DNA of 64,000 bases from contig NC_134032.1 of NCBI RefSeq assembly GCF_964204645.1, positions 2,476,416-2,540,415 on the forward strand, read 5' to 3'. Origin of the DNA: Tubulanus polymorphus (taxonomy: Eukaryota > Animalia > Nemertea). The translations under genes were made by a program, and so were the position numbers. This document shows, one piece after another, positions 6,938 to 31,619 of the stretch. Within the stretch, counting starts at the first letter, position 1. Every line of letters begins with the position of its first letter. The notes under the pieces are model-generated. The model worked only from the letters and a program-made list of their open reading frames with translations, was not told the origin of the DNA and did not search any database.

Positions 6938-6976
6938 AACAGCATCTTTTAATTTCATATATTTTGACTATAAAAA

Positions 6977-7269
6977 TGAGTGAAAATATATTAAACTTAT
7001 TACATCTATATATAAAAATCAACAGAATATTAAATCAATTATTATGCTTACAGGTTTATTTTCATTCTCAGTTCATACTACAAAACAGTTGTTAACAATT
7101 CTATGATTGCTGTAAAATTAGATACACTGAATTAATAGAAAATATAAATTATATTTCAGATAGATAGAATAATATTAAATGCTGTGAAGTATGTAATAAA
7201 AGATATAAAAATTTAAAGAGTTTAAAAACTCATAAATATATTCATGAATTTCTTGTTAAATCTATTTGA
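6977..7269 (+). pseudogene. Disrupted small ORF (MSENILNLLHLY...)
   Basis: Frameshifted homolog of the 42784-42969 ORF MSDNILNLLHLIYRNQEDIKLIIMISGLLS. Confidence 0.55.
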
Positions 7270-7316
7270 ATTCTAGTCAATTCTTGTTAACCAATAGCGT
7301 GACTAGAATTCAAATA

Positions 7317-7530
7317 GAGCGGAGCGGCAGCGAAGCGAAGCGACCAATTGATTTAATACAATATGCTTTTAAAATTTAAATTATTAATATCTTAGAATAA
7401 ATATTTAGTTATAATATAAAATGCACACGGCTATGAAAAAATATTATAGTTTCAAATTACTTTTAATATTTGCTTTTTAATGAGCTCGACCGTTCGACCT
7501 TTGGCCTAGAACAACTAAACCCCTATTACT
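7317..7530. repeat. Right TIR of the small element (outer arm plus apical loop only)
   Basis: Reverse complement of ~4984-5197; preceded by a separate 19-bp-stem hairpin at 7261-7318. Confidence 0.88.
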
Positions 7531-8121: not shown

Positions 8122-8698
8122 AGTAATAGGGGTAATGGGCTTTCAGGCCAAAGGTCGAACGGTCGAGCCCATTAAAAAACAAAATATTAAAAGTAATTAA
8201 AAAACTATAATATATTTTCATAACCGCGTGCATTTTATATCAAAACTAAATATTTATTCTAAGATATCAATAATATAAAAAGCATATTGTATTAAATCAA
8301 TTGGTCGCTCCGCTTCGCCACCGCTCCGCTCCGCGACCAATTGATTTAATTACAATACACAAATTCAAATAATCAAATATATTCAAATGATAATAATTAT
8401 TCTATTATTCAACTGAAATGCACGCGGTTATGAAAATATATTATAGTTTTTTAATTACTTTTAATATATGTTATTAATGAACTCGATCATTAAACCTTTA
8501 GCTTGAAAGCCCATTACCCCTATTACTCTTAAAATATTCATATATATATGAATAACATTTAAATCATTGAACTTCTAAAATCAATTTTAATAAAAAATAT
8601 AGTATTAAAATGGAAGCAAATAAGTACTACTGCCCAACATGTAATATCGATATAGATAAATCCCAAAAAGCAAGACACAATAAAACTAGAACACATTT
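8122..8698. repeat. Left TIR, containing a 406-bp hairpin (8122-8527) and a copy of the first ~26 PolB codons (ATG 8610)
   Basis: Reverse complement of 25923-26488; differences seen are one substitution, a 5-nt indel in the apex and a 7-nt indel at the inner edge. Confidence 0.95.
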
Positions 8699-9744
8699 GT
8701 TTTTAGTCCAGTTGGTTAAAGCAAAGACATTTATCGAATTAAGGAACTCAACACATAGTGAAAAATATGTTGAATCGTTATAAACACCCGATAATACTCA
8801 GCTATATAGTTGGTTGTATTAGCTCCAGTAAACATATGTTACCAGCTTATATTTCAATTGTAAAGAGTTAATTAATTTCATTGATCTAAATGCCTTTATT
8901 ATTGATTTTTTTTCCAACTTCAACGCGTTGTGTATACGGCGAACGTTAGCGAATCACAAATCTCATAATTTACAAGTCTCAACACGCTTGTTCTAGATGT
9001 TTTTACTAGAAAATGATTCTATTTTAACCTATATACATTCAATGTACAGAGCTATAGAATAAATCTATAAATTCACAGCTGTTACAGTTGTTACTATAAC
9101 GACGAGACATTATTACACGTCATAATCAGAAACGTGTAGAATATTCTAGAACCGGAACTAGATGACGTGGCATAATCAACGACGTGTCATTCTAGAAATC
9201 GCCCCGGAAATGGATATACGCTGTAATATTGTGCTCAGGATATTCTATCTTTCGAAACGAAATAAGGAGTTTATAGTTTACAATTATAAATCTAAATGTA
9301 AGTACTGTTTGTTGTAGTTATTAAGGCTATTAAATACGAAACCTTTAAATATATTTAAGTGTATTTAGTATATCTTTTAGATAGTTAGAGTTACCGCTAA
9401 TATCTTTTAGATTAATAAAACGCCATACGCATCAAGAAGTGATAGAGAAACTCAAGATACTCTTTCTGACTGAGGAATCAACAGCAATGGATATCAAATC
9501 AATAGAAATTAGCACAAGAAACACAAGAATCACCAAAAGATCGTCGAAGAAACTATATAAGAATTTCAAAAACATTAAGACTCCAATGATTAAGTTTAAC
9601 ATTTGTTGATGTAGTTAAATATTTACCAGCAATTGAAAAAATGTTTGTAATTATAAATTGTATTTATAGAAATCAAATGATGTATTGGAAGAAACGGCCG
9701 AACAACTTGTATAATGTATTGTGTAAATCTGATTGATGAATTTT

Positions 9745-10084
9745 TATGTTCGGTCGTTTCTATTCAGAATGAATATATAATTATGATTAGCGCATGCGCA
9801 TTAAGCAAAAGCGCTCCTATAAGAGCGGTTTTGCCTAATGCGAACACGTTTAGATATTTTATGTCGGTCGTTTCTATTTACATAATTATATATTCATTAT
9901 GTAAATATAATTATGATTAGCGCATGCGCATTGATCAAAAACGCTCCTATAAGAGCGGTTTTGCCTAGTGCACATGCGTTTGAATTTTCTATGTTCAGTT
10001 GTTTCTATTTCACAGAATGAATATATAATTATGATTAGCGCATGCGCATTAAGCAAAAGCGCTCCTATAAGAGCGGTTTTGCCC
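9745..10084. repeat. Three ~120-bp tandem units, each with GCGCATGCGC and a small stem-loop
   Basis: AATTATGATTAGCGCATGCGCATT..CAAAA(G/A)CGCTCCTATAAGAGCGGTTTT; GCGCATGCGC at 9790, 9920, 10038. Confidence 0.9.
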
Positions 10085-10222
10085 AGTGGTATTATTTAGA
10101 TATCAAGGAATCGAAACAACTTATCAAAAGCAGCGAGGAATGAAAAAGGATGACGTTGATCGAAGAAATGGAAGAGGATTCTAAAATTATTAACCGATTT
10201 AGTAAAAAAATACGTATAATAA

Positions 10223-10888
10223 ATGGAACCAGAACAACCACAAACTATCAATATTACAAATAACACTGGCGTTATAAACATATATTACAAGAAATGTTCT
10301 AAATGTGAATTAGATAAATCATTAACAGAATTTAGTAAGCGTAAGATTAGCAAAGATGGTTTTCAATATTGCTGTAAAACTTGTACTAAACTATATACCA
10401 AACAATATCGAGAAGATAATATAGAACATTATAATTATTATATGACAAAATATATGAGAAAAAGACATCAAACAGATCTTAATTTTAGATTGAAACAATG
10501 CTTAAGGTCTAGATTAACACAATTATTCAACAAAGAAACACATTCAGAAACACTATCTAATTTGTTGGGTTGTTCAGATGAATTTCTCAAATCATGGATT
10601 ATATTTCAATTCGATGATAAAATGAATATAGATAATTATGGGGATTATTACCACATTGATCACGTGTTACCAATATCTAAATTTAACATGAATGATGAAT
10701 ATAATAAAAAACTTATTTGGGGTTGGAAAAATTTAAGACCTTTAGAAAAGAAAGAAAATCAAACCAAATCTAATAAACTAGATTTACAGTTATATTTAGA
10801 ACAGTTAACAAAAGCAAAGAAATTTATTGATCAATGGAATAATAATCCAAATAATGAACAATACGTTGAGTTTTTAATGAGTGGTTAA
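10223..10888 (+). CDS. HNH-family endonuclease of the type seen in large DNA viruses
   Basis: N-terminal KKCSKC..EF..DG..CKTC Zn motif; YHIDHVLP..NLRPL..KENQTKSNK HNH motif. Confidence 0.8.
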   Translation: MEPEQPQTINITNNTGVINIYYKKCSKCELDKSLTEFSKRKISKDGFQYCCKTCTKLYTKQYREDNIEHYNYYMTKYMRKRHQTDLNFRLKQCLRSRLTQLFNKETHSETLSNLLGCSDEFLKSWIIFQFDDKMNIDNYGDYYHIDHVLPISKFNMNDEYNKKLIWGWKNLRPLEKKENQTKSNKLDLQLYLEQLTKAKKFIDQWNNNPNNEQYVEFLMSG

Positions 10889-11113
10889 AGAATAATATAT
10901 CTCAAATAAAATATAATAAAAATTACATACCTTCAACTATCTATTATTTCTATTTTAATTTTTAATATTTTCTTTTCAAAAAAGAATACTTTATATCACA
11001 AATAAAAAATACTAAAAAAACAATAACTAATACTAGAATTCTTAAGCTTTAACTAGCTAGTATCATTTGAAGAATACTTATAATACTATTCTTATTAAAT
11101 TTCTCTAATATAA

Positions 11114-11719
11114 ATGTCTAAGAAATCGAATAAGAATAATATTTAAGTTGAAAAAACTTTGGAAGATTTAGGTCTAACAGATGATAATGATAATGTGGCA
11201 ACTAAATGTGATAATAAAATTGATAACAATATTGATTACGAGTACTATTTATATTGTAAGCATCATCTAGAACTATTGATTGCGAGTGGAAAAACTAAAG
11301 AGTTTATTGGTAAAACAATAACTTTTCAAGAATTAGATAATATGAATAAAGAAAAAGTAATCAAATATTTTAAGATTTATGAAGAGTCAAGGTTAGCTAG
11401 AATAAATGATTCTATTTCAGATGGTATTATCAAATGTTATTCAAAATTATGTAACCAGTTAATACCAATTAATGATGAAAATAAATTATATAATGATTTG
11501 AAAAATGACTATTTAGTTATGACTGAATTACAAAAATGGGTTGGATATGCTTCATTCCAATTAGGATCGGTTATGACATTGATTTCTACTGGAGTTATAA
11601 CATTTTCGAACATCAAACCTATGGAATATAAATCAGGTAAGAACGAAACAGATGTACTACAACAAAACGTCGAAACAGAAAATGAATCAGAACAAAAATT
11701 AACTAAAATAAATGAGTGA
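11114..11719 (+). pseudogene. Conserved Maverick hypothetical protein with a premature stop at 11144-11146
   Basis: TAAATG start at 11114 is in frame with the 11159 ORF; homolog at 31620 reads through this position (VPIEKTLDDLG vs I*VEKTLEDLG). Confidence 0.75.
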
Positions 11720-12074
11720 TGGAGTTAAGAAAAAGGCTAGATCCGAGAAACAAATTAAATGGGCAAGAGAATTAGGTAAAAGATCTTCAGAATTAAAAAA
11801 AGCTAAGAAAAAGAAATTAACCGATATAAATGAATCACCTGGTATTGATTCAAATAATAATCCATCTAATAGATTCAGCACAGCTGAATCTCATAATTAC
11901 TTATATATTACAATTGGGTTAATCACAATTATTATATTCTCCGGTGTAATATATAAATCAAAATTCAAATCTGATGATAAAGATGATTCCAATGATGATA
12001 AACCTATTATACCAGAAAATAAATCAAATCATAAATCAAATGAAAATAAATCTAAAATATTATTAATGGATTAA
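11712..12074 (+). CDS. Basic single-TM protein
   Basis: RSEKQIKWARELGKRS basic N-terminus; YLYITIGLITIIIFSGVIY hydrophobic helix; TAAATG start. Confidence 0.75.
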   Translation: MSDGVKKKARSEKQIKWARELGKRSSELKKAKKKKLTDINESPGIDSNNNPSNRFSTAESHNYLYITIGLITIIIFSGVIYKSKFKSDDKDDSNDDKPIIPENKSNHKSNENKSKILLMD

Positions 12075-12077
12075 AAT

Positions 12078-13166
12078 ATGATGAAAAAAGAACAATATTT
12101 AAGAGATTTATATTATAACCCAGAAAGTGAAGTATCATTTTCCAACGTTTCAGAATTATGGAATAAAATTAAATCTGATAAAGAAAAAATAAAATATAGT
12201 GAATTAAAATCATGGTTACAAAATCAACCCACATATCAAATTCATAAAAAGATGGATAAAAAATATTTAACAAGAAAAGTAATGGTTTCATATATCGATC
12301 AACAATGGCAAGCAGATTTAATTGACATGAAAAACTTAGAAGAATATAACAAAGGATATTTCTGGATACTAAATGTTATAGATATATTCAGTAGATACGC
12401 ATGGAGTATCCCGATTAAAAATAAAACTGGTATAGAAGTAACAAATGCTTTTAAATCTATATTTAAAGAAGCTATTCCAGATAAGATACAATTTGATGAA
12501 GGTAAGGAATTTTATAACAAACATTTTAAAAAACTATTAACTGATAACGATGTAGAATATTTTTCAACACATTCAGATAAAAAAGCATCTGTTATAGAAA
12601 GATTTAATAAAACATTGAAAACTAGAATGTGGAAATATTTCACCGCTAATGAAACATATAAATATATCGATGTGTTAGATGATTTAATGAAAGGTTATAA
12701 TAATTCTAAACATAGTTCTATAAATATGAAACCTATACAAGCTAGAAAAGAAGATAATTCAGAAATAGTTTGGAATAATTTATATGGAGCATTTGTTACA
12801 CATGATTTTGGAGAACCTAAATTTAAAATAGGACAACATGTTAGAATTTCTAAATATAGAAAAACATTTTATAAAGGTTATACCCCTAATTTTACAGAAG
12901 AAATATTTAAAATTAAAAAGATAATATTAACTAAACCATTTGTTTATAAATTGTTTGATTTAAAAGATGAAGAAATATTAGGTTATTTTTATGAACAAGA
13001 ATTATCATTAGTACCAAATCCAGATGATATAGAATACAAAATAGAAAAAGTATTGAAAACAAAAACTCTTAAAGGAAAAAAGTATTCTTTGGTGAAATAT
13101 AAAGGATATGATGATAAATTTAATGAATGGATTTTATCTAGTAAAATTAAAAGAATAAATGAATAA
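12078..13166 (+). CDS. Retroviral-like (rve) integrase with C-terminal chromodomain
   Basis: WQADLID, VIDIFSRYAW, QFDEGKEF, IERFNKTLK (D,D,E); YKIEKVL..VKYKGYDDKFNEWI chromodomain. Confidence 0.96.
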   Translation: MMKKEQYLRDLYYNPESEVSFSNVSELWNKIKSDKEKIKYSELKSWLQNQPTYQIHKKMDKKYLTRKVMVSYIDQQWQADLIDMKNLEEYNKGYFWILNVIDIFSRYAWSIPIKNKTGIEVTNAFKSIFKEAIPDKIQFDEGKEFYNKHFKKLLTDNDVEYFSTHSDKKASVIERFNKTLKTRMWKYFTANETYKYIDVLDDLMKGYNNSKHSSINMKPIQARKEDNSEIVWNNLYGAFVTHDFGEPKFKIGQHVRISKYRKTFYKGYTPNFTEEIFKIKKIILTKPFVYKLFDLKDEEILGYFYEQELSLVPNPDDIEYKIEKVLKTKTLKGKKYSLVKYKGYDDKFNEWILSSKIKRINE

Positions 13167-13773
13167 AGATTTATTTATATTTGAACCACATAATATGTTA
13201 ATAACTGGAGTTACGAATTGTGGTAAAACACACTTCATATTAGATTTATTAGAAACTATTTATAAGAATCATTTTAAAAATATAATATTATTCTGTCCTA
13301 CTTATGAAATGAATGAAACGTATAATAGAGATATAGTTTTTAAAGATAAAAAGTTTATTATATTAAATTCTAAAACAGTGAAAGATAATTTAGATAATTG
13401 TATAAAAATTGCATTAGATATTTATAAAGGATCAAATACATTATTTATTATTGATGATTGCGCAAATTTACATGATTCTAAAATTAGAGAAAGTGAGTTA
13501 TGTTATTTAGCTTTCTCTGGTAGACATTTTGGGATAACAACTTGGGTTTTAAATCAGAAATATAATTCAATTGTGAAAGATTTTAGAGAGAATATAAGAT
13601 TTCTAGTTTTATTTTATAACAAAGATAGAAAATCTATGCAACAATCATTGGAAGAAAATCAAATTATACCTCCTGAATTACATGATGAATATATGAATAA
13701 ATTAAAAAATAATAAAGGTTCCAAATTACTTATGAGATTACAATTTCCATATGAATATAAATTTATAAAATAA
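13159..13773 (+). CDS. A32/FtsK-like DNA packaging ATPase
   Basis: Walker A GVTNCGKT, Walker B FIIDD, GRH motif, LNQ. Confidence 0.93.
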   Translation: MNKDLFIFEPHNMLITGVTNCGKTHFILDLLETIYKNHFKNIILFCPTYEMNETYNRDIVFKDKKFIILNSKTVKDNLDNCIKIALDIYKGSNTLFIIDDCANLHDSKIRESELCYLAFSGRHFGITTWVLNQKYNSIVKDFRENIRFLVLFYNKDRKSMQQSLEENQIIPPELHDEYMNKLKNNKGSKLLMRLQFPYEYKFIK

Positions 13774-13785
13774 AATCCTAATTCA

Positions 13786-14316
13786 AAATATTATAGAATT
13801 CACTGTATATTGATGGATGAGTGGATGAATTGGATGAATCGGATGAATTGGAAGAGTGGATGAATTGGAAGAGTGTAATAATATATAATTTACATATGAT
13901 TTTTATTTTTAAAACAGTAAGAGTTTGATTTGAAGATGTCATATAATAATAAATATATTTTTATAAAATAATAAAATGACAGATAATAAATGTCATATAA
14001 TAATAAATATATATTTATAAAATAATAAATAATAAAATGATAAATAATAAAATGATAAATAATAAATATATTTTTATAAAATAATAAATAATAAAATGAT
14101 AAATAATAAGTGTCATATAATAATAAATATATATTGTGTTAAATTTAATAAAGAATAAAAATATTATATTTATACTCATACTATTCTTCCAATTTATGTG
14201 TTAAAAAGTAAAATATATATATTATCATACTCATCCACTCTTCCACTCACCCAATTCATCCAACTCTTCCAACTCATCCATTCATCCATCAATATACAGT
14301 GAATTCTATAATCTTT
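13786..14316. repeat. Inverted-repeat-bounded AT-rich spacer between convergent gene blocks
   Basis: ATTATAGAATTCACTGTATATTGATGGATGA (13790-13820) and its reverse complement (14282-14312), each followed inward by GGATGAATT/GGAAGAGT arrays; centre has ATAATAAA repeats. Confidence 0.88.
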
Positions 14317-15397
14317 TTAATTTTCATTTTCATATTTTTCTTTAAGCTTATTGTATTCTAAATATATATCCCTTTGCATTATCTTTGATATAAGTCCTAA
14401 ATGATTCCCAAATTTATATTTATTGAATGTTTTTCTTGAAAATATTTTTGGAATATAATTTTCGATTTCAGTTTTAGATGGATGTTTATTTAAAAATTCT
14501 CTAAAATCATCATATTCAAGTTCAAATAAGTTCATTGCATAACTTACATTTGGTTTAAAGTTATCTAACTTTTTCAATATGGTAACTATATCATTACTCA
14601 ATAAATAATGTATAATTGTTTTTCTATACCACCGATAATCTAATATATTATTATTATTAAATTTTGGATTTATAACTGTTGGATCTTCTATTACATTATC
14701 TGTACCAATATGTTTAATTGAGTATTTAATAATAATTTAATTATTTCAATTGTTTATCATATATTACATATTCTTTACATTTTTCACACCAAGATTTAAA
14801 TACTTTTATTGCATGGGCTGAATCATTTCCACTTTTTGTTTTTAATTTATAATGTTTTGCCCAATTAGCCTTTGTTATACATTCATTACAGAAAGCACAA
14901 TAATTCTGATCCTCTTTACATTTATCTTTATATATATTGGCATATGTTTTTACTAATTGTAAAATATGTTCATCTTTTTTGATGTGTAATAAATAATCAT
15001 TGTAATTATCAAAATCTTCTTCACAATACATACATCTGATGTTATCTTTTGGTTGAACATTTGATTTTTCTATTTTAGGTTCAATATTATGTTCTATTTT
15101 TGTTTCAATCTTATCATCATTCGATGTAGAAGGTATAACATTATCTTCTATTTTTGTTTCAATATTATCTTCTATTTTTGTTTCAATATTATCTTCTATT
15201 TTTGTTTCAATATTATCTTCTATTTTTGTTTCAATATTATTATTACGTTCAATTAAATATTCTTTGTATTGATTTAATTCATTTAATAAAAATGTTCCAA
15301 TATATTCATTTATTCTTTTATAAGGTATTACATAATACAAATCATCATTGATTTCTTTATCAGCTTTGATTCTTTCATATACTTTACCTCCTTCCAT
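14317..15397 (-). CDS. Zn-finger protein with IETKIEDN repeats; ORFs 14741-15397 and 14317-14601 are probably one gene broken near 14740
   Basis: CMYCEEDF..HIKKDEH and CAFC..HY C2H2-like motifs; 24-nt tandem repeat; the downstream frame is open from 14736 without its own ATG. Confidence 0.6.
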
Positions 15398-15429
15398 TTA
15401 TTATATATATTTTTATTAAAGTTAAAATT

Positions 15430-16677
15430 CTAATACATAACACTATCTAATTGTGAATTTACAATATTTAATTGCGCGTCAGATATAATATAAATGTGCA
15501 TTTTAAAATTTTTGATTCCCTTTTTCTTTGTCATGAATAATTGTATTCCATCCTTTGTATTTTGTAATTTTTTCCCAGAACCATGTAATGAATTATCTTC
15601 AGTTGTTCTAAAATCTAACCATAATGCAAATTTATTACCGGTATAATAATCAATTTGATTAATGTTACAATTTTCAAATGATTTTATTTTTTCATTCATA
15701 AAATGTTTTCTAATTTCTGGCCATTGATCTATCATTCTCATTCCTTGACAAAATATTTTATTCGCTATACCTTCGATAGTTATTTCTACTTTTGTTATTT
15801 CAGGATTATAATAATTGTCAACATTTATTGCGCCATTAGTATACGTTCCAATAGTAAAAAATATTAATATACCTTTAATAGATCTTCTAGGAAAGTTAAT
15901 ATTCTCATTTATTATTTCATCATTTGCATTAATAGTTACAGTTTTAAATTTATCAATATAATCATATAATAATGAAAATCCTTGATTGTATTTAGTTTGA
16001 ATTATACTTGAAATATTTTCATCAGTTACTGTATCATATTCTAAACATATATTCGATAATTTATAACTCATATCTTTATTAACGCTAGATAATACAATTT
16101 CATTTACAGGAGCAAATGTTATCTCAAATATAATATCTTCTTGAATTGCGTATTTATATAAAGGTGCATTATTATTTATCAATTCAATGTCTAATGGAAT
16201 TTTATATTTGCTTCCATATATACTTTTTATCAATTTATCTACATCATTTGTTAATATTGCGCTATTAGCTTCTGATCTTAATTTATTTTGGTTTTCTGAT
16301 TGGATGCCTTGAAATATCATATTATTTCTATTTTCTTTAGTTAACCATAAATCTTTATAATGCATAAATAAATTATAATCATCTAATGAGAAAACTGTTT
16401 GTGGACCAATCTTTATTGTTAACTTTTTAATCAAATATCTTCCAACATTATCAACAACATAATTATTATTATTACCGATTACTTTTATATCAGCTGATAA
16501 ATAAATACTGTTTGGAACGTAAAAAGTATTTTGTGTTAATCTAGGAATTCTAACGTATAAAGTTTCATCGGGATTAATATTTGAAGGGTTATGAGTAATT
16601 ATATGATGTGATCTTTCTGCTTTAATAGCATTAGATATTCTATGATTCTTCGAAGGACTTATATAACTCCCACTCAT
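15430..16677 (-). CDS. Probable major capsid protein (double jelly roll)
   Basis: Intact 415 aa, beta-rich pattern (LYVRIP, YLSADIKV, IKKLTIKIG, YKLSNICLEYD, ININFP..IKGILIFF, ITKVEITIEG, FALWLDF); size and context fit a Polinton MCP. Confidence 0.72.
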   Translation of the reverse strand: MSGSYISPSKNHRISNAIKAERSHHIITHNPSNINPDETLYVRIPRLTQNTFYVPNSIYLSADIKVIGNNNNYVVDNVGRYLIKKLTIKIGPQTVFSLDDYNLFMHYKDLWLTKENRNNMIFQGIQSENQNKLRSEANSAILTNDVDKLIKSIYGSKYKIPLDIELINNNAPLYKYAIQEDIIFEITFAPVNEIVLSSVNKDMSYKLSNICLEYDTVTDENISSIIQTKYNQGFSLLYDYIDKFKTVTINANDEIINENINFPRRSIKGILIFFTIGTYTNGAINVDNYYNPEITKVEITIEGIANKIFCQGMRMIDQWPEIRKHFMNEKIKSFENCNINQIDYYTGNKFALWLDFRTTEDNSLHGSGKKLQNTKDGIQLFMTKKKGIKNFKMHIYIISDAQLNIVNSQLDSVMY

Positions 16678-16748
16678 TTATTTAACAAAAAAATTAATTA
16701 TTTATTTTTTGATATCATGGTTTACTTGATATTTTTTGATATCATGGT

Positions 16749-18440
16749 TTACTTGATATTTTTTGATATCATATTTACTAAACCAAAAATAATAGCACTT
16801 ACAACTGTAATTAAAAATAAAATAATATGTTCAGCAGCAAAGTTAATAATGTTTCCTGCAGATTTCAATATAAAACCAACAATTGAAGCAATAACTCCTG
16901 GTAAAGCTGCAGCAGATTTTTTAGATAGTTCCCATAAATATTTTGCTAATTTCTTTAAACCATCTTTAACTTTATCTTGTATAGAATTATTACCTGGGGG
17001 TTTATCCGGTTTATTTGGAGTAGGAGTAGATTTCAAAGCATTTGATATTGCTAAACCAATTGTTGTAAATAACATAGTTACAGCTGTTACAATTGAAAGA
17101 ATTGTTATTCCTTTTAACTTAAATAATAACTTTATTCTGTCTTTTAATGATATTTCAGAATCTGGTTTAATCAACAAATCTTTAAAAATAACTTTTAATT
17201 TTTTAATATGATTAAGATCATATGATTTTAATAATATATCTCTTTCTTCTTTTTGTAATTTTATGTTATATTCTAAATCATCTATTTCTTTTACTAAAGC
17301 TAACTTTCTGCTTTCAAAATCAGCTTCATAAACTACTTGATGATTTCTATTTAATTCTAATTGTTTTAATTCTTCATCTACATTAACTAATTCTTTTTCT
17401 AACATGGTTATTTTAGAAAATCTCATCTTAATATTAGCAATTTCATCAGCTGATACTTGTATACCTTTAATTTCTCTACGTATTTGTTCAGGAAATGCTT
17501 CTAATTTTTCATCGGTTAAATTAAGAAATCCTTTTTCTAGTAAATATTGCAGTCGATTTATTCCAGTTTCAGAACCAGATGTATCTGATATACTATTCAT
17601 CAGTTCTTCTGAATCTCTTAATCTATCAATTTGTTTTTCTAATTGTAATTTACTTGAATCATTATCAATTTGTTGAGTGTCTCTTCTCGATGTTTCGGGT
17701 GTTGAAGATCTCAATCTATCTAATCTATCTCTATTGTCTTCCATTTCTGGATCAAAATCAGTAGGATTTGGATTTTTAAATGGTGAATATTTGTTTATAT
17801 CAATTTTAGGAATTGGTTCTTCTTCATTTACTCTATCGAGTGCATTCCATATAATTCTGAGAAATTCTCTACCACCTTTTGAATTTTCAATTGTAGATGT
17901 TGCTCGCATTTCAGGTTCAAAAATATTTTCTTGACCCATTTTAGATAATTGAATTGTTACAATATTCCTATTTAAATCAAGATTATAATACCATGCATCA
18001 TTTTTAAATTCTAAATTATTTGTGAAATATGGGTCATCTTTAAAAATTTGTTCTACAACATCTTCAGTATCAATTTCATCTATTACAACTGATGGTAATA
18101 ATTCGTTAACAATTGTATCTGTTACTCTAGATTTCATTTTGAATAATTTCATAGGTTTATCAGGATATTTTTCTTGTTCTTTTACTAATAGTTTCATAAA
18201 TTCTTTTCTTTCTCTTCTAGTTGTAATTCTACCCCTTTCAGGAGCTTCTAAATATTTATTTATTTTTTCACGTAATTCGGGATCATCATCATCATCATCT
18301 TCACCTAAATTAGTATTATATGCTGATTCATCATCATTATCAATATTAGCACCTGCATCATTATAATCATCATCAATATATCCTTCATTATTATTTCCCA
18401 TTTCTCCCATTTCATAATCTTCTCCACCTTCTACATCCAT
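16749..18440 (-). CDS. Large protein with acidic N-terminus, coiled coil and C-terminal hydrophobic/amphipathic helices
   Basis: Intact 563 aa; GITILSIVTAVTMLFTTIGLAI, LPGVIASIVGFIL, IILFLITVVSAIIFGLV. Confidence 0.85.
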   Translation of the reverse strand: MDVEGGEDYEMGEMGNNNEGYIDDDYNDAGANIDNDDESAYNTNLGEDDDDDDPELREKINKYLEAPERGRITTRRERKEFMKLLVKEQEKYPDKPMKLFKMKSRVTDTIVNELLPSVVIDEIDTEDVVEQIFKDDPYFTNNLEFKNDAWYYNLDLNRNIVTIQLSKMGQENIFEPEMRATSTIENSKGGREFLRIIWNALDRVNEEEPIPKIDINKYSPFKNPNPTDFDPEMEDNRDRLDRLRSSTPETSRRDTQQIDNDSSKLQLEKQIDRLRDSEELMNSISDTSGSETGINRLQYLLEKGFLNLTDEKLEAFPEQIRREIKGIQVSADEIANIKMRFSKITMLEKELVNVDEELKQLELNRNHQVVYEADFESRKLALVKEIDDLEYNIKLQKEERDILLKSYDLNHIKKLKVIFKDLLIKPDSEISLKDRIKLLFKLKGITILSIVTAVTMLFTTIGLAISNALKSTPTPNKPDKPPGNNSIQDKVKDGLKKLAKYLWELSKKSAAALPGVIASIVGFILKSAGNIINFAAEHIILFLITVVSAIIFGLVNMISKNIK

Positions 18441-18456
18441 TTACATAATAAAAAAA

Positions 18457-19845
18457 TTAAAATTTAAAATATAATATTCCTCCGATTACAATTCCTATAC
18501 AAGTTATAACTAATTTAGTATTTTCATGGGATTTATTATCATCATTTAGTTTAATTATATCATGTTGAATTTTATCAGTTTTTATATTTTCTGATGTATT
18601 GTAATCTTTTATTTTAGAATCATTATCCAATTTAATATTCTTAGTTTTAGTTTCTGTTGATTGAATGTGTTTTTTATTTTTTTCACCTTCCATTAATTTT
18701 GGAGCAGTAATAATCTTTTTATTTATATCATTTAATCCAAATGAATTATTTATTGTTGCAGTTTTAATTAGATTATTATAACCAATTATGTTTCCCATCT
18801 TTAATACTAAATCATTAGAAATAATTAATAGATTAGGGCCTATACAATAATTAAGTCTTACATGAGATTTATCTAAATAATTTTGATATCTTATAATGTT
18901 TTCTGGAATCGATCTATTTTTATCATTATGTATGGAATCTTCAAATAAAACTTTAAATTGTTTTTGTGTATCGAATGATGTATTCAAATTTCCAATTATC
19001 GGTGATCTTGTTTCAACTTGTGATCCTAGAATACAAATCAAATAAGTTCTAATAGATTGATTTATTCTTTCTATACCTGATTTAGTAAAACCTTCACTAT
19101 TTTCTAAAATAAAATAAACCCAACCATTATTGTTTTCTTGTTTTAAATTATCATAAAATTTTGGTAATTTATTGAAATTTAATGTTTCTAAATCCTTTGT
19201 TTCTATTTTACCATAACCTAATTTATTATTATAGATATTATAAAAACTATTAGATGTTATGGGAAGTGCACAATATTCTGCAATCTTTTTAGGGCAAGGA
19301 AGTGATCTTAATGTTCCAATTTTTGTTCTAAAATCAGAATTATTTATATCTATATTAAATTCATTGCAAATTTTATAAAACTTAGATAAATTAATATTAT
19401 TATCTAATTCTTTAAAATATCTAGATCCTGGTAAAGCACACTCTAATTCATTTAATATTATTCTGATTTGAAAGTATGTATGAAATCTAAATAAACTTTG
19501 AATTAGTTTATATTTAGAATTATTCAAATGATCATTCCAACTAATTCCACATCCTGTTGTTGCACAATAAACAGCAAAATTTAATTGGTTCTGCCAATAC
19601 TTCATATTAGATTTTAATAACCATTGTTTTTCATCTTTCAATTTTTTAAAATTAATTAAATATACATGAAATATATTTTCCATCTTTGCATTAAAATTAT
19701 TAGTTTCAGTAACATAAATTTCTAAATTAGTTAATGAATCTAAAACTTCATTTCTATATGTAATATCTTTATTAAAATCTATTGCTGGAATATTATATTT
19801 AATTAATTTATTATATCGGAAAGCTTTTGGAAAACTATCTACCAT
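18457..19845 (-). CDS. Hypothetical protein with C-terminal TM anchor
   Basis: Intact 462 aa; WQNQLNFAVYCATTGCGIS; ends LVITCIGIVIGGILYFKF. Confidence 0.85.
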   Translation of the reverse strand: MVDSFPKAFRYNKLIKYNIPAIDFNKDITYRNEVLDSLTNLEIYVTETNNFNAKMENIFHVYLINFKKLKDEKQWLLKSNMKYWQNQLNFAVYCATTGCGISWNDHLNNSKYKLIQSLFRFHTYFQIRIILNELECALPGSRYFKELDNNINLSKFYKICNEFNIDINNSDFRTKIGTLRSLPCPKKIAEYCALPITSNSFYNIYNNKLGYGKIETKDLETLNFNKLPKFYDNLKQENNNGWVYFILENSEGFTKSGIERINQSIRTYLICILGSQVETRSPIIGNLNTSFDTQKQFKVLFEDSIHNDKNRSIPENIIRYQNYLDKSHVRLNYCIGPNLLIISNDLVLKMGNIIGYNNLIKTATINNSFGLNDINKKIITAPKLMEGEKNKKHIQSTETKTKNIKLDNDSKIKDYNTSENIKTDKIQHDIIKLNDDNKSHENTKLVITCIGIVIGGILYFKF

Positions 19846-19861
19846 TTATATAACTAAAAAA

Positions 19862-20296
19862 TTAATAATTTGTTAATTCTTTTAATAATTTATCTTGTTC
19901 TTCAACTGTTATATGACCATTTAAACTTATTATATAATCTAGTGTGTTCTTTAATTTATTAATTTCTTTTATATTAGTTTTGATTTTTTCTTTATTACTT
20001 TTTATATTTAATTTTGAACTTATACCAGTTAAAACACTTGAACTTAATCCTAATACACCAATTGATATAGCTAAAGGTGTTAATGGACTGAATATTGCTA
20101 GAAATGTTATTACAGAACTAATTGTAACCGAACCACTTATAATCAAATAATATATAATTTTACTTTTTAAATATTTTTTCTTTTTTATCTTTAAGTCACT
20201 TTCAAATTCTAATATTTGTTTTTCTAAATATGTTTTTAATTTAGTTTTATTTATATCATGAGGAATAATATCAATACTATCAACTTTATCTTCCAT
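19862..20296 (-). CDS. Two-TM hairpin protein
   Basis: 144 aa; two hydrophobic segments between helical charged regions; TAAATG start. Confidence 0.8.
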   Translation of the reverse strand: MEDKVDSIDIIPHDINKTKLKTYLEKQILEFESDLKIKKKKYLKSKIIYYLIISGSVTISSVITFLAIFSPLTPLAISIGVLGLSSSVLTGISSKLNIKSNKEKIKTNIKEINKLKNTLDYIISLNGHITVEEQDKLLKELTNY

Positions 20297-20315
20297 TTAT
20301 TTAGAATAAAAATTA

Positions 20316-20738
20316 CTAATTAGTAAACTTATAAGCAACAAATATAACAATAACAGTTCCGCCTAAAATCCAAATTATTTCATATTTCTGTTGTTCTTTA
20401 CTTGGGGTATAATAATCTGATAATTTGGGTTTGTATAGATGTAATTTTTCTTTATTTGTTACTGTGTTATATAAACTCATTGCATCATCAACTGATTGAA
20501 AATCTCTATGTGAAATCTTCTGATTATATAATTCTTTATTGATGTAATCCATATAGTTTTGTCTCTTTTCTCTATATTCTTCTGCAGCTTTATTGTATTT
20601 CTCTAACGCTAAGTTATGTCTTCTTTGTTCTCCTAATGAACTATTTTTATCAATATGTTTAAATAAATAACCACCACCAGTAAATGCTAAAGCGTTAACA
20701 ATTGCCGATCCTATAATAGTTATAATTGCAGAAGCCAT
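20316..20738 (-). CDS. Small protein with N- and C-terminal hydrophobic helices
   Basis: MASAIITIIGSAIVNALAFTGGGYLF..IIWILGGTVIVIFVAY; TAAATG start. Confidence 0.82.
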   Translation of the reverse strand: MASAIITIIGSAIVNALAFTGGGYLFKHIDKNSSLGEQRRHNLALEKYNKAAEEYREKRQNYMDYINKELYNQKISHRDFQSVDDAMSLYNTVTNKEKLHLYKPKLSDYYTPSKEQQKYEIIWILGGTVIVIFVAYKFTN

Positions 20739-20762
20739 TTATTTAGCAAAAAAATTATGCAT

Positions 20763-20984
20763 TTATATGGGAGGAATATATTTTTGTTTTTCCAAATAAT
20801 CAATAGTTAAATTAGATAAAGTAACTGCTAATGTTAACTTTAAAATATCATTTATATCAAATCTATCAACATTAACACTTCCCATTTTGAATACTTTTTT
20901 TAATACCATTGAATAACCAACAGTTCCAACTGATAGTAATGCGCCATTATATAATCCAGTTATTATCCACTTATTATCACTCAT
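20763..20984 (-). CDS. Small hydrophobic protein
   Basis: 73 aa, tightly packed between neighbours, T7-GATAAA-TAAATG start. Confidence 0.75.
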   Translation of the reverse strand: MSDNKWIITGLYNGALLSVGTVGYSMVLKKVFKMGSVNVDRFDINDILKLTLAVTLSNLTIDYLEKQKYIPPI

Positions 20985-21620
20985 TTATTTATCAAAAAAA
21001 TTACTATCATCAACATATTTAGTTATCTTAGTGATGATTATTTGAACATTTATTTCATTACTAGTTTTATGATTATCATATATTTTGGATAATATGTTTT
21101 TAATATCACCAATAATTCCATCTTCATTTAATTCATAATATTCTAAAGGTGATTTAATTAAATCAATTACTTTTTCTATATTATACTTTTCTTTATCAAT
21201 CATTGATGCATTGTTAAATGATTTACTTTTTATATCAGTAATTACATCATTTAGTTTAATTCTCATTTCTTTACCATGTTTAAAATCAAACCCAAAACAT
21301 ATACTCGGTCCAACAGTTGCACCCATTTTCAACCGAGCTCTTCTATTAATTTCTTGAGCTAATGTTTCTAAATTATATAATCCTGGTTTAAGATAAAGAT
21401 GAAACCATTTACTTTTATTTCTATCATGAATTAAAAAGACTCTATGTTCAATAGACTTATCTGATACATTGTAAAAAGAATTACATAAACTTATATTTAC
21501 TAATTTTAAATCAACACAATTTTTGAATTCTCTGTCTAATTGTACTAGTAAATTATGTGATTTATAATTTGTAAGTTTTCTAGAATCTACAAATATTCTG
21601 TATTCTTTTAATTCCGCCAT
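20985..21620 (-). CDS. Possible minor capsid (penton-like) protein
   Basis: N-terminal IFVDSR..VQLDREFKNCVDLKLVNISLCNSFYNV and LKPGLYN resemble single-jelly-roll minor capsid N-termini; short for a penton. Confidence 0.5.
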   Translation of the reverse strand: MAELKEYRIFVDSRKLTNYKSHNLLVQLDREFKNCVDLKLVNISLCNSFYNVSDKSIEHRVFLIHDRNKSKWFHLYLKPGLYNLETLAQEINRRARLKMGATVGPSICFGFDFKHGKEMRIKLNDVITDIKSKSFNNASMIDKEKYNIEKVIDLIKSPLEYYELNEDGIIGDIKNILSKIYDNHKTSNEINVQIIITKITKYVDDSNFFDK

Positions 21621-21637
21621 TTATTTTACATATTTTC

Positions 21638-21979
21638 TCATTCGAAATCTATTTCATGGTGCCCTTTTTCATTCTTACCTTTGTATACGAAATAGAAATC
21701 TCCAGAACATAATTCTTCTAGATCTTCACTTGATAATCTATGAAATCTATCTGGTAAATAAGTTCTGAATTTATATTTATTTCCTTTTAATCCTTCATAT
21801 TCTAAATGAATTACTAATTTATCTCCATATTTATTAGTAATTGTTTCAATGTTAGTAATTAAATATTTCTTGTGAATTGTTTACTCAGTTAGTTTTTTAA
21901 ATTTATAATCTACAGATTTGACGCTTGAAGTATCTTTAATCCTATCTAAGAATTCACTGTGTACTTGTTTACTCTCCAT
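21638..21979 (-). pseudogene. Small conserved Maverick protein (possibly OB-fold/SSB-like), one in-frame stop
   Basis: MESKQ..FKKLTE*TIHKKYLITNIETITNKYGDKLVIHL..TYLPDRF..YKGKNEKGHHEIDFE; TAAATG start; homolog at ~32395-32660. Confidence 0.65.
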
Positions 21980-22007
21980 TTATTATACACATTTTTATTG
22001 AAATTGA

Positions 22008-25000
22008 TTAACACGCTAGAATCCTTTTCATAATCTCATTTTCTTTTGTTTCTTCTCTTTTGAATTTTATATATTCATCTAAATTGCAACCATAGGCGAC
22101 TGTGTGGATTCCATCATCTAAAATATATCTTTTATCATCAAATGGGTTTAGACTTATCTTCTCTATCTCTTCAATATACATTTCATGATCTTCAGATCTT
22201 AAACATTTCATCTTATGTTTTCTAACTTCTTCATTAAATATACAATTGATGTAATCTTTAAAATGAATATTATTTTCTACTACACTTTTGGTTATTCCTT
22301 TTAACTTTTTAGCTTCATGTTCTTTAGTTTTATAACTATACATTTTAGATCTAATACCAATGAACTCTATCATTTCTTCACCGCCTAATTCATCCTTAAA
22401 CTTCCCAGGAACTTTTTTATTATCATTGATAAACAATTCATGATCTTTAGGATAGTTACTGAAATCAAAATGATGATTTAATATTTTTAAATCACCAGTT
22501 ATGTTATCACTTTTTATCTTTAATATGTAAGAATCTGTATCTAGATATAAGATTTCTATATTTTTTTTCCCCAAAATGGGGTTGCAATACATTATAATAG
22601 AATTCATACATCAATAGCTTTGAAATTTCTAAAACTGCAGCTCCAACATAAATAGGTTTATTGAACTTCATAGAAGTTCCTTTTAATTTAACTGCTGCTA
22701 AATTTTCATCGAATATTCTATTACCTATAAATTTCGGATACGATTGTAAATGTCTAATTCTTTTACCATTACTAACTAACTCAATATCATTTCTATTTCT
22801 TATGTTTTCACATGTTTTTCCATAGAACGCATTATTCATTAGTTTAAAGTAATCTTTTTCAAAATCAGTTTTAGCTTCAGTTCTCTGTGTAGTATTAAAA
22901 TCTATAAATTTTTCTAACCACTTAGATTGATTAAATGAAATATATCTATGTACTTTTTTTAATATCATTCCTTGATTCAAATAAAACTTCAACATTCTAT
23001 AATGTACTACATAATTATATTTATCTTCTTGAGTTACCATTAACTTTTCAGTATGAATATGATTATCGGGTTTAATTCTTTTTTGATAATTTGATAATTC
23101 TTCATGTTTAACAATTTTATGTTCGGGACAATATGCTAGATTTCTAGATTTGAATTTAATATTTTCGGGGTATTCTAAATCTACAACAAAGAAGTAACCA
23201 GTATCTGAATCATCTGCAATATCTAGGATTCTTTTCTTCCAATCAAATTTATCAATTTGTAAAACTTCAGTTATTTCAAACATCCCATAAGGTTGTGGTT
23301 CTATCATTGCCCAACCATAAAGATTATTTGCATCTATGTATAATAATTTATATCCAGGATTATCATTTACATTGAAATATCTATCACCCAATACACCTGA
23401 AACACCTCCTCTTATAGATTTTTCAAATAATAGTAATTGATCTATATTTGTTAACAAATCCATTTTTATATCTGTAAATTTTAATCCACAATCCCATGTT
23501 AATCCTGGTGATGAATAACAATGACAAGGATCAATATTGAAATATTTTAGGTTTACATCTCTAAACCTTTCAAATATATCGGTTAATAATAATACATCTG
23601 ATTTTAAATATAAATCTACTAATTGTCCATGATTTTTAATTTCAAAATGATTCCAAATATTCAATGTTCTATTATATACTTCATCTTTAACATATTCATT
23701 TTTTAATTCATCATAGAATTGTTCTTTCAATAATTCAGTTATTTTAAAATCATTATGATTTTTTAGAAAGAATATGGAATTGCGCCTTTACATCTCATTA
23801 ATTTTAAATCATCATAATTTGGGTAATATTCTTTTAATATCTTTAATTCATCATCAACTAATGATTTTGATAAGTTATCTAATGAACTATTTAAAAATCT
23901 ATATGAATCTATAAATCTTAGACAACCAAATTGGAATGATATATAATTCTCAGATGTTTTAGCTAACATTCTAAATTTATAAGTTGGTATTTTATCTTTT
24001 GATTTATTTGAATTTAATATTTCTATTTCATTATTAATTTCTTCTATTTTATGAAACAGTTGCTTAATGAATAAATGCGCGTCATACCCCGATAAATTGT
24101 GAAATATAATGGGGACAAAATTTACTTTTTTGGCTTGTAAATTGCAAGCCTCATGCGCTGCACCTCTAAATTTACCATTCAAATGATCGTGGTCTCTTAC
24201 TTTTTTATCTTTATAATTAAATATCTTTTCACAATAATAACATTTATCTGCAAACTCAAATTCTTCTTTATCTTCTTCTGTCATAATTATTTCTTTATTT
24301 GTATTCAATAATTTACTAAATCTTATTTCATATTCAATTAATAAGTCACAAAAATGATTGATAACATTTTCATTTCTATAATTATAATATTCACTTTCAA
24401 TTAGTTCTGGATAATCAGATTTTATATATAACCCGAAAGCTGCAGCTGATTGATGAATCTTTTTAATAGTATTTGTTTTTGGTGGTTCATCTGAATAATC
24501 ACTTTCATTAGAATTTAATTTCTTTCTTTTATAATATATATCTTTTCTATCTTTATCTGTTAATTCTTTATTCAATGATTCAAAATCTCCATATATTACA
24601 AATGGTACTTTATTTTTGTAATCATATTTTTTGAATTCTAATATTTTATCTTTTTCATTTGGTAAAACTAATTTACAATAATCATGATTATCACATAGTT
24701 GTTTATGATTTAATAATGTACTTTCATTACTGAATCTATGTAAACATTTTCTACATAGATATATTTTATGGTGATCATTTTCTGATTTGAAAAATAAATC
24801 GATTTGTTTAATCCACATATAATGATTTTCATAATATAGTATATCTATAACATCATTTGAATCATAATCTTTTGATAGGTATAAAGGTTCTAATGTATAA
24901 TGTTTAATATTATTTCCTTTTGTATTTGGTAATTTAATTAAATCAAATACATTTATTTTAAGATTATTATCTCTTTCTATTTTTGGAATATTTTTAATTC

Positions 25001-26005
25001 TAACAGGATACTTATCTATCTTATAATTATTTTCAAATTGTTTATAATGAGTTAATCTATAAGTATGTTTATTATAATCTTCAACTGGATGTAAACAACT
25101 TATTATAGCCCATATAAAACATTTATTATCAAAATTTTGTATATTTATTACACCATTAGTTTTAAATGGTAGTTTAATATAACTTGTTCCATTTATACTA
25201 TCATCTTTATAATATGATAAATTATTTTCATCAATTGGTTTTGATTTAGTTAACTTATTATATTTTGTGTTATAAACATGTAAAGTTATAAATATTATCT
25301 CATCAAATATTAAACCAGATCCTTCAAAATATTTCTCTTCTATTTTAGTTTTTATTTCATTATAACATTTATTTAATTTATCATCTATATGTTGTTTATA
25401 TTATATATTGGTTTATCTTCTGATTTTATAAACTTTACTTTAGAAGATATACTTATTTTAGGATATTCAACATCTGTAATTATTTTTATTATTTCTTTCA
25501 TATTTTCTAAATGTTTTTTATTTTCTTCTAATGTTTTTCCTTTATGAAATTTAAACTCGATAGCTGCTGGACCAATATCACTTTTAAATGCTTCGGTTAT
25601 CTCTATATCTTTTTTATTATCTAATGAATTAATATAATTTCTTACATCTTCCATGTATGGTCTTTTATTGTTTAATTTATTTTTTATTCTTTTAATTGTC
25701 TTCTGTTTCTTATCGTTATCATTATCAAAATAATCTTCACCTAAAATATCATTATTCTTATTTCTAATATGACTTATAGATTTTAAATGTTCTTTATAAT
25801 ATCTTTTATCACTGAATGATTGATTACATGTATCACATTTGTATGTTTCTTTTTCATTCTTTAATTCTTCTAATTTAGTTTCTAATATATCATCCTTATA
25901 TTCTAGTTTCAATTTATTCTCTAAATGTGTTTTATTGTGTCTTGCTTTTTGGGATTTATCTATATCGATATTACATGTTGGGCAGTAGTACTTATTTGCT
26001 TCCAT
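22008..26005 (-). pseudogene. Protein-primed DNA polymerase B with Zn fingers, vOTU-like domain and endonuclease VII insert; frame breaks near 25385, 23760 and 22560
   Basis: NKCFIWAI..HYMWIK, YGDFES, RDHDHLNGKFRGAAHEACN, FHNLSGYDAH, YIDANNLYG, KLMNNAFYGK, YLDTDS, SKMYSY. Confidence 0.95.
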
Positions 26006-26488
26006 TTTAATACTATATTTTTTATTAAAATTGATTTTAGAAGTTCAATGATTTAAATGTTATTCATATATATATGAATATTTTAAGAGTAATAGGGGTA
26101 ATGGGCTTTCAAGCTAAAGGTTTAATGATCGAGTTCATTAATAACATATATTAAAAGTAATTAAAAAACTATAATATATTTTCATAACCGCGTGCATTTC
26201 AGTTGAATAATAGAATAATTATTATCATTTGAATATATTTGATTATTTGAATTTGTGTATTGTAATTAAATCAATTGGTCGCGGAGCGGTGGCGAAGCGG
26301 AGCGACCAATTGATTTAATACAATATGCTTTTTATATTATTGATATCTTAGAATAAATATTTAGTTTTGATATAAAATGCACGCGGTTATGAAAATATAT
26401 TATAGTTTTTTAATTACTTTTAATATTTTGTTTTTTAATGGGCTCGACTGTTCGACCTTTGGCCTGAAAGCCCATTACCCCTATTACT
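25923..26488. repeat. Right TIR with a 401-bp hairpin (26088-26488)
   Basis: 26088 AGTAATAGGGGTAATGGGCTTTCA pairs with TGAAAGCCCATTACCCCTATTACT ending 26488. Confidence 0.95.
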
Positions 26489-26664
26489 AAGAGGCAATAT
26501 TTCAGTATATATCTTAGAAAGAATTTGACGATAATGATTTTGAGAAGTTTGCATTTGAAGAGATGAGTGATGACATAAAAGCTGTTGCATAGCGCTGTTT
26601 CTCTATTATCCTTTGCTGGTAACTAATCTGAGAAACAATTCAATTTTTTCTTTTCTTTTTTAGG

Positions 26665-29639: not shown

Positions 29640-29962
29640 TCTTTCATTTATTAGTAATTGTTTAATTAAAATTGATATTTTTTCAACTCGTTAATTACTC
29701 GTTACTTTTCATATTGTTTTAATTCTGTCATTTATTTTACATATTTCATTCATCGAAATCTATATAAATGATTTTCATACATATGATATTCATTTGTATA
29801 ATGTTCATTTATATGAAATTATTAGAGTAATAAAGTATATGTTGTATAATTCAGAGGTTGAAAGGTTCAGTGAGTGAAAAATAAGAATAAAAACGAGCGA
29901 GAATTTATTCTTATTTTTTATGAGCTCGACCTCCGGTATGAAAAGACATATACCCTATTACT
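29640..29962. mobile_element. Relic Maverick-family end with a 137-bp terminal hairpin (29826-29962)
   Basis: AGTAAT...ATTACT; inner stem AAAAATAAGAATAAA/TTTATTCTTATTTTT around CGAGCGAG; GAGCTCGACC motif shared with the other TIRs. Confidence 0.7.
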
Positions 29963-30739
29963 CTTCTAGTAGGTCGATTGGATTTTTTTCACATTTCGTG
30001 TGACAGATCCGTGCGAGCATTTTACAAGTTCCACATTCTTAACTAGAAAAAGATGAGACACACTCGGCTGATTGTTCCATTCTTCCTCAATAACAAACTC
30101 AGCATCAATAAGGTCAAGGACACTAATTCATCACTATAGTTGCGATTACACGAAGACGTGATTTTTTCGATGGAAATATGGAAACTTGGCGCCCCAAACT
30201 CATGGATCGTGCTTAAAATTGTCTGTAAATCTTATTTAAGTAGTAAATAAATGTCATGGTGTATTGGGAAATTTAATCAGACTTGTTCATCCGAATTGCT
30301 TTCGAATAAAGAAATTTCTGGAATCGATCTGCGTGCAGACATCCATAGCACGTATCAGTCGAAATTACTGCGAAAAGCCGATAGTAATCCGACGGGCCTG
30401 CGAAATGTATCGGAATATAAGAATAACACAACATGGATTTTATGACCGACATTTTTATTGGTTATTCAACTCAAATTATCATATGTGCCTAGGCATCTCA
30501 ATCGTTTCAAGTTTAGTTAAGTTTATAACAATCTTCATATTCGTTTGCTATCGATTTACACAGCGTTTCACAATGATCGGCACCACCATTACAATGTTCG
30601 GAATCGGCTTTCTAGAAACAATTTGCCGTCCCTTCAGCAAAAGGACACTGAAGTGTTTCTCCGTCATTTTCTTTTGCCAAAATACAAAATCGGAAAAAAG
30701 TGGCATTAAAGACTTATTAGGAGAATGAATTCATTAAAT

Positions 30740-31304
30740 AGTGTTCTAACAAATTGTGGAAAAACTTGTTTTATATTAAATTTATTAGAAACTATTTATA
30801 AAAACTATTTTGATAATATAGTATTATTTTGTCCAACGTATGAATTTAATCAAACTTATGATAGAAATATAACTAGAAATGATAAATTTATTGTGTTAAA
30901 TCCTAAAACAGTTTAAAAAAATTTAGATAATTGTATAAAAGAAGCAATCGATATTTACAAAGGATGAAATACATTATTCATTATAGATGATTGTGCAAAA
31001 TTTACATGATTCAAAACTTAGAGAAAGTGAGTTATGTTATTTAGCTTTCTCTGAGAGACATTTTGGGATAACAACGTGGGTTTTAAATCAAAAATATAAT
31101 TCAATTGTTAAAGATTTTAGAGAAAACATTAGATTTTTAGTATTATTCTACAATAAAGATAGAAAATCGATGAAAAATGCGCTTGAGGAAAATGATTTAG
31201 TTCCAAATGATTTACATAATGAATATATGGATACATTGAAAAATAATAAAAGATCAAAATTACTATTGCGATTACAACACCCATTTAAATATGAATTTAT
31301 TTAA
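30740..31304 (+). pseudogene. Decayed packaging ATPase of a related Maverick
   Basis: Highly similar to 13159-13773 (TNCGKT, RESELCYLAFS, DFRENIRFLVLFYNKDRKSM); stops and frameshifts. Confidence 0.92.
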
Positions 31305-31590: not shown

Positions 31591-31619
31591 ACAACACAAC
31601 TAATTTGTTTGTTATATAA

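Follow-up and report, generated by a model that had tools for sequence, protein, structure and literature searches.

Gene content of the element

The DNA analysed here (the window) is a 64,000-nucleotide stretch of the Tubulanus polymorphus genome (contig NC_134032.1, positions 2,476,416 to 2,540,415), whose own numbering is used throughout. It contains, at 8122..26488, a complete polinton-type endogenous viral element of 18.4 kb with terminal inverted repeats (TIRs) and a target-site duplication. The TIR arms, of about 560 bases each, are 98-100% complementary, and both flanks carry the same 6 bp, i.e. a perfect 6-bp target duplication. We describe a set of predicted membrane proteins encoded by this element, which is real, conserved and linked to the gene of the major capsid protein (MCP), and we weigh whether this set points to a particle containing lipid.

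A first-pass annotation, made from the sequence and its open reading frames (ORFs), had listed five intact adjacent ORFs of 563, 462, 144, 140 and 73 amino acids (aa) between a probable MCP and a penton-like gene. All five are indeed open, on the minus strand, between the 415-aa and the 211-aa ORF (Table 1).

Table 1. Features of the element (positions in the window; E, E-value; TM, transmembrane)
Feature	Position	Strand	Basis or description
Left terminal inverted repeat	8122..8686	.	Inverted-repeat comparison
Non-coding stretch with short direct repeats, protease remnant not detected	8687..10222	.	
Zinc-finger/HNH-like ORF, 221 aa	10223..10888	+	Weak Pfam HNH_4, E 0.03; relatives in 5 loci
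Conserved ORF with mildly hydrophobic C-terminal stretch	11147..11719	+	125 aa from first in-frame ATG; ~206-241 aa in sisters
120-aa protein	11712..12074	+	Basic N-terminus, one predicted TM helix (63-81)
RVE integrase with chromodomain	12078..13166	+	Pfam rve E 2.5e-9, Chromo E 8e-5
A32-like packaging ATPase	13159..13773	+	Pfam Pox_A32 E 1e-13
Variable zinc-finger/repeat ORF, 218 aa	14741..15397	-	
Major capsid protein, 415 aa	15430..16677	-	Polinton-3_NV type by eye; putative double jelly-roll
563-aa protein	16749..18440	-	N-terminal part acidic and variable; coiled coil at 318-424; then a TM helix, a Pro/Gly linker, a basic amphipathic helix and a pair of hydrophobic helices
462-aa predicted tail-anchored protein	18457..19845	-	Head (~1-380) folded, linker disordered, TM helix at the C-terminus
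144-aa SLATT-like two-helix membrane hairpin protein	19862..20296	-	Pfam SLATT_fungal E 0.003, PADLOC 2TM effector E 0.002, both weak
140-aa protein	20316..20738	-	Hydrophobic helix rich in Gly/Ala at the N-terminus, then a charged helix and a C-terminal TM helix
73-aa small helical protein, highly constrained	20763..20984	-	dN/dS ~0.06
Penton-like ORF, 211 aa, apparent deletion-fusion in this copy	20985..21620	-	
Protein-primed DNA polymerase B, broken (split over several frames)	22008..25400	-	Endonuclease_7 match, weak DNA_pol_B_2 match
Right terminal inverted repeat	25929..26488	.	Inverted-repeat comparison

Predicted membrane proteins

TM helices were predicted with a Kyte-Doolittle (KD) hydropathy scan in 19-residue windows, and the peak of each protein was tested against 2000 composition shuffles. 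Soluble controls (MCP, integrase, ATPase, HNH and polymerase pieces) peaked at 1.26 or below. The hydrophobic helices proposed for the five ORFs stood out clearly in the 563-aa protein (peak 2.65, reached by 9/2000 shuffles; segments 447-465, 510-528 and 539-557) and in the 140-aa protein (peak 2.00, reached by 7/2000; hydrophobic at both ends). They were less marked in the 144-aa protein (peak 2.15 in a hairpin at 51-93; 103/2000) and in the 462-aa protein, whose peak of 1.87 in the last 19 residues is weak when taken alone (249/2000). The 73-aa protein peaked at 1.16, a value reached by 1498 of the 2000 shuffles, and is thus not predicted to be TM by hydropathy. The TM protein noted at 11712, i.e. 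the 120-aa protein, was borne out (peak 2.06, reached by none of the shuffles).

The 563-aa protein belongs to a large family, with 14 near relatives and 873 representatives in a profile search (E<=0.001). We aligned 105 sequences, i.e. the query, 8 of the 14 near relatives and 96 of the 150 listed profile matches, fragments being dropped. The C-terminal block (hydrophobic helix, Pro/Gly linker, basic amphipathic helix and two hydrophobic helices) is conserved: three hydrophobic segments were found in 54 sequences, two in 39 and one in 12, and the C-terminal segment and the basic amphipathic helix were each present in 103/105. The N-terminus is acidic and disordered, and by hydropathy a signal-like N-terminus was seen in a single member. 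The structure model is poor overall (pLDDT 50, too low for a fold search) but holds a long coiled coil. No gasdermin or toxin family appeared among 25 of the 51 Pfam families listed (105 members) or in the best 60 PDB rows. This protein had been put forward as an entry, fusion or pore-forming protein; a classical (class I-III) fusion glycoprotein is unlikely given the missing signal peptides and the acidic, disordered N-terminus, and a membrane-shaping or membrane-breaching role may still apply.

For the 462-aa protein, 167 matches were obtained, and 92 sequences were aligned, 91 of them from the 120 listed matches. The weak individual peak is upheld at family level, as the most hydrophobic window is C-terminal in 84/92 sequences versus 201/1840 shuffles; the tail that follows has a median length of 2 residues and is net positive in 61/92. 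Signal peptides were not found in this family either. The head was modelled confidently by AlphaFold (pTM 0.77) and Foldseek returned no fold match for it, BFVD and PDB folds being covered; it may represent a new fold.

Among the smaller proteins, that of 144 aa fits the SLATT layout, in which a pair of adjacent TM helices precedes a helical C-terminal part, with a profile score of 18 bits against a curated cut-off of 26.5 and PADLOC E-values of 0.002 and 0.02. Relatives of the 140-aa protein occur in 6 loci, and of 7 sequences the most distant one lacks the C-terminal helix. The 120-aa protein has relatives in sister loci L001, L003, L004 and L016.

Linkage to the capsid gene and selection

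A relative of the 563-aa protein shares its contig with an MCP gene in 13 of 20 MCP loci (in one by a weak N-terminal match only), and at least one membrane gene is present in 17 of the 20; none was found in the short spans of L013, L014 and L017. L001 keeps the entire gene order of the window element, and the other loci shuffle and invert it. This linkage spans a quick tree of the MCPs, including L020 (34% MCP identity) and L019 (29%), and in L020, a member of a distant clade, the 563, 462 and MCP genes are linked.

Rough ratios of nonsynonymous to synonymous substitution (dN/dS) against one sister were 0.24 for the MCP, the 462-aa and the 144-aa proteins, and 0.14 for the 140-aa protein; the 73-aa protein is the most constrained (Table 1). 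The hydrophobic segments are also positionally conserved in GC-richer relatives.

Maturation protease and capsid lineage

The first-pass annotation had reported no recognisable adenain-type protease, and our searches agree. The adenain His/Cys motif was absent from the six frames of the element, and no peptidase family matched its 17 ORFs or the 95 stop-to-stop frames of at least 24 aa in the gaps, including 8700-10200, where a decayed protease was sought; the AT-rich repeat gap between the ATPase and the 218-aa ORF was partly covered. In 21 sister loci (78,420 bases), 73 of the 122 frames of at least 90 aa match ORFs of this element, and no peptidase match was obtained for the remaining 49. 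As these contigs are partial (maximum 11.5 kb) and several are close kin, this absence is support, not proof.

Canonical Polintons had served as the yardstick for the missing gene, and this was the wrong comparison. The MCP and the sequence of Polinton-3_NV (P3_NV; PMC4028283, Fig. S3) share about 10 motifs in the same order along the 415 residues, by eye and unscored. Capsid_N was a weak match in 25/49 members of the MCP family, and one MCP relative is named from a bivalve. The MCP is likely homologous to that of Polinton-3_NV, and the element likely belongs to its capsid lineage. Table S1 of PMC4028283 shows no protease in Polinton-3_NV, N1, N1A or N1B (Nematostella elements), and according to PMC4642659 none of its polinton-like viruses (PLVs) encodes one. 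P3_NV and N1A_NV are placed beside the PgVV group and not in the capsid lineage of Maverick-Polintons (PMC11296320), and the same is stated for cnidarian capsids (PMC10120064); octocoral, hydrozoan and bivalve ATPases fall outside the main groups (preprint 10.64898/2026.06.19.733378). The literature thus accounts for the missing protease: its lack is on record for this PLV-like capsid lineage, as for PLVs in general, and it is no sign of membrane biology.

These data also bear on the idea that copy-specific decay or chance is at work, this particular copy having lost its protease and AT-rich coding having produced the hydrophobic stretches. Such decay would agree with the split polymerase and the fused penton-like ORF, with the incompleteness of the sister contigs, and with the peaks of the 462-aa and 144-aa proteins, which on their own are matched in 12% and 5% of the shuffles. 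It is highly improbable, given that no protease was detected in the sister frames and none is listed for the four Nematostella elements, and the conserved position of the hydrophobic segments in GC-richer relatives largely refutes its second half.

A proposed membrane-lined particle and other readings

The first-pass annotation had concluded that the virion contains lipid. What stands of this is the membrane set itself, conserved and capsid-linked; lipid in the particle is what we infer from these genes. In the reading we favour, which we hold to have an even chance of being right, the set likely builds and anchors an internal lipid membrane in the particle and likely helps entry into the next cell. 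The simplest way to read four or five conserved anchored proteins that have stayed with a capsid gene over deep divergence is as components of a membrane-lined particle. Internal membranes are common in viruses of the double jelly-roll type, with PRD1, PM2 and large DNA viruses as examples, and packaging genuine TM helices is difficult in the absence of lipid.

Since signal peptides are absent, these proteins would insert from the cytosolic or nucleoplasmic side, with their large domains presumably on the capsid side. The 563-aa protein, with its TM helix, amphipathic helix and hairpin on a long coiled coil, might bend the host membrane, open it, or serve as a conduit for delivery. The internal membrane could be tied to the capsid shell by the tail-anchored 462-aa protein, with the 140-, 120- and 73-aa proteins as presumed small partners in the membrane or the core. 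For the SLATT-like 144-aa protein, a role in release or defence is more likely than one in particle structure. In the absence of a protease, adenovirus-type cleavage could not set entry proteins free, which fits membrane-borne delivery without proving it.

Several points weigh against a lipid-containing particle. No homology to proteins of membrane viruses (the PRD1 membrane proteins included) was found in PHROGs, in phage genomes (462- and 140-aa proteins) or among BFVD or PDB folds; small membrane proteins diverge beyond detection. An amphipathic, membrane-contacting MCP terminus is a feature of such internal-membrane viruses, and across 49 MCPs the amphipathic moment of the N-terminus is hardly higher than elsewhere (1.61 vs 1.47). 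To this are added the hydropathy of the 73-aa protein, the poor model of the 563-aa protein, and the faster evolution of its C-terminal half (rough dN/dS 0.52) and of the 120-aa protein (0.57). Adenoviruses have many TM genes yet no lipid. PLVs also share the A32 ATPase and the absence of a protease, and we found no report of a membrane for them. Finally, pore-forming, holin-like and SLATT genes occur across this virus group and are read as lysis or defence genes in the preprint 10.64898/2026.10.13.758929.

This last interpretation leads to non-structural roles: SLATT- or holin-like pores would serve release or an abortive defence directed at a helper or rival virus, tail-anchored proteins would remodel endoplasmic reticulum, nuclear or mitochondrial membranes, and the particle would be lipid-free. 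The SLATT-like nature of the 144-aa protein speaks for it, and the short anchor with a basic tail fits organelle tail-anchoring, for which this combination is the rule. Conflict genes are usually patchy and fast-evolving, whereas the 563 and 462 genes persist with the MCP across deep divergence and the 462-, 140- and 73-aa proteins are constrained like the MCP, so that as an account of the whole set we find it doubtful. SLATT and holin-like genes are also reported from algal PLVs. Lysis or defence probably applies to the 144-aa protein under any scenario.

Alternatively, a naked capsid could package membrane-breaching proteins, the 563- and 140-aa proteins lying inside a lipid-free shell and being released to disrupt the endosome, and the 462 head acting as a cement protein. 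The conserved basic amphipathic helix of the 563 family would suit this, and when residues 265-355 of the 462 model were compared in a wide structure search, two adenovirus capsid chains, 8roq_N and 9lr9_K, ranked 3 and 7 among 48,161. In such a capsid the 563- and 140-aa proteins would do the job of adenovirus pVI, or of PLA2X, GasderminX and Cupiennin, membrane-active accessory proteins of other animal polintons (PMC8502044). We consider this unlikely.

Returning to the membrane-lined particle, its broader form is tentative and rather less than probable: a widespread animal PLV lineage may have kept or rebuilt a PRD1-like internal membrane with its own kit, in which a coiled-coil protein shapes the membrane, a tail-anchored protein of new fold links it to the capsid, and small membrane proteins complete the set. 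If true, such a lineage would still today connect the membrane-containing ancestors of the tectivirus kind with the membrane-lined giant viruses, within a group hitherto regarded as having naked capsids. According to current models, polintons descend from PRD1-like phages that contain a membrane, and the membrane-lined giant viruses descend from polinton-like ancestors, yet no polinton particle is known to have been seen. The lineage described here supplies conserved candidate proteins. The kit gives a testable case, with the prediction of lipid-solvent-sensitive particles holding the 563-, 462- and 140-aa proteins, and the 563 and 462 families are abundant, unannotated markers for little-studied animal endogenous viruses.

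Copies, decay and genomic neighbourhood

About 12 in 100 reads of a single DNA run from organism A were covered; 51,152 of them fell on 15420-26520, mostly 90-99% alike, and 1437 continued past 26488 into mixed flanks (agreement 0.34). The element therefore belongs to a multicopy family with many different insertion sites in that organism. Read depth is about 10-fold lower over 17275-18387, i.e. the N-terminal two thirds of the 563 gene, and stays high over the C-terminal third and the neighbours; the N-terminal part thus likely differs strongly among sister copies, as a host-facing domain might. The 4 kb at 21996-26028 were skipped by 90 reads of run X7, and some sister copies accordingly lack the whole polymerase yet retain the element end.

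The copy in the window is decaying, its polymerase being split and its penton-like ORF fused. A polymerase relative is continuous in sister locus L008. The penton-like gene appears to have been fused by a deletion in this copy: its residues 6-94 correspond to an L001 ORF of 254 aa, residues 99-121 match the next L001 ORF, and 352 reads show loose ends inside it. Its identity as a penton is weak, resting on a weak DUF5901 match (E 0.005) and on sequence motifs, and no match was found in PDB. A broken small ORF at 21641-21880 (minus strand) has an intact 114-aa relative in L001 and may resemble the small single-stranded DNA-binding proteins of polintons. A deoxynucleoside kinase gene is found in sister loci L001 (10343-10981) and L007 (2898-3380) and is lacking in this copy.

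Other mobile sequences lie nearby. A non-autonomous mini-element of 2.5 kb (4984-7530) has termini 87% alike to those of the large element and its own 6-bp target duplication; its ORFs (5886-6560 and 6719-6937) are unrelated to the genes of the large element, and decayed relatives of both lie at 37584-38130 and 43020-43172. A decayed sister copy at about 29700-32500 retains remnants of the ATPase and of the 125-aa ORF (DNA 71-82% alike). On the minus strand at 1037-3650 are pieces of a different, GC-richer protein-primed polymerase (PF03175), so that a second polinton lineage adjoins the element. Rhodopsin-family G-protein-coupled receptor ORFs of the host (34540-35619, 55774-56445 and 57376-58212) are consistent with a likely animal host genome.

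Comparison with known systems

Full-text literature searches and searches within PMC11071308, PMC11131425, PMC8097293, PMC6260650, 10.1101/2025.02.07.637071 and 10.1101/2025.10.09.676808, subscription reviews and preprint supplements lying outside them, turned up neither an account of this gene set nor one of a membrane inside the particles of polintons or PLVs. Families of the 563 and 462 type may already figure in orthologue tables of 2026 preprints, or under the names 'Adintoc' or SLATT in PMC8502044.

With PRD1-like tectiviruses and PM2 the element shares, by analogy, a jelly-roll capsid, an A32-like ATPase, a DNA polymerase B that is protein-primed (pPolB), the lack of a maturation protease and several small membrane proteins; it differs in being eukaryotic and integrating, with no homology of membrane-protein sequence or fold detected. 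Nematode Mavericks with a captured fusogen (bioRxiv 2023.08.22.554363) are likewise polintons with a proposed lipid-bearing particle, but their herpes-like fusion protein implies an outer envelope and their protease is kept, whereas neither signal peptides nor a fusogen match were found here. Maverick-Polintons of groups 1/2 and adintoviruses resemble the element in pPolB (here split), RVE integrase, TIRs, 6-bp target duplication and membrane-active accessory genes, and differ by encoding adenain, not detected here, and, as judged by eye, by their MCP lineage (PMC8502044 and PMC8097293). For their membrane-active proteins PLA2X, GasderminX and Cupiennin, no family match was detected in the element.

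PLVs of the Aquintoviricetes (PgVV/Gezel, TsV; PMC4642659) have the same minimal morphogenetic module of MCP, minor capsid protein and A32 ATPase without protease, and a SLATT-type gene is also known from algal PLVs. Unlike them, the element likely has an animal host, carries an RVE integrase and pPolB, and has five to six hydrophobic proteins encoded next to its MCP; a lipase was not found. The likeness to Polinton-3_NV and N1/N1A_NV (PMC4028283, PMC11296320 and PMC10120064) lies in the MCP motifs by eye, the ATPase, the absence of a listed protease and the size (16.6 kb for P3_NV). A protease-less animal polinton with a PLV capsid is known, and it is the conserved membrane-protein kit that is apparently described here for the first time.

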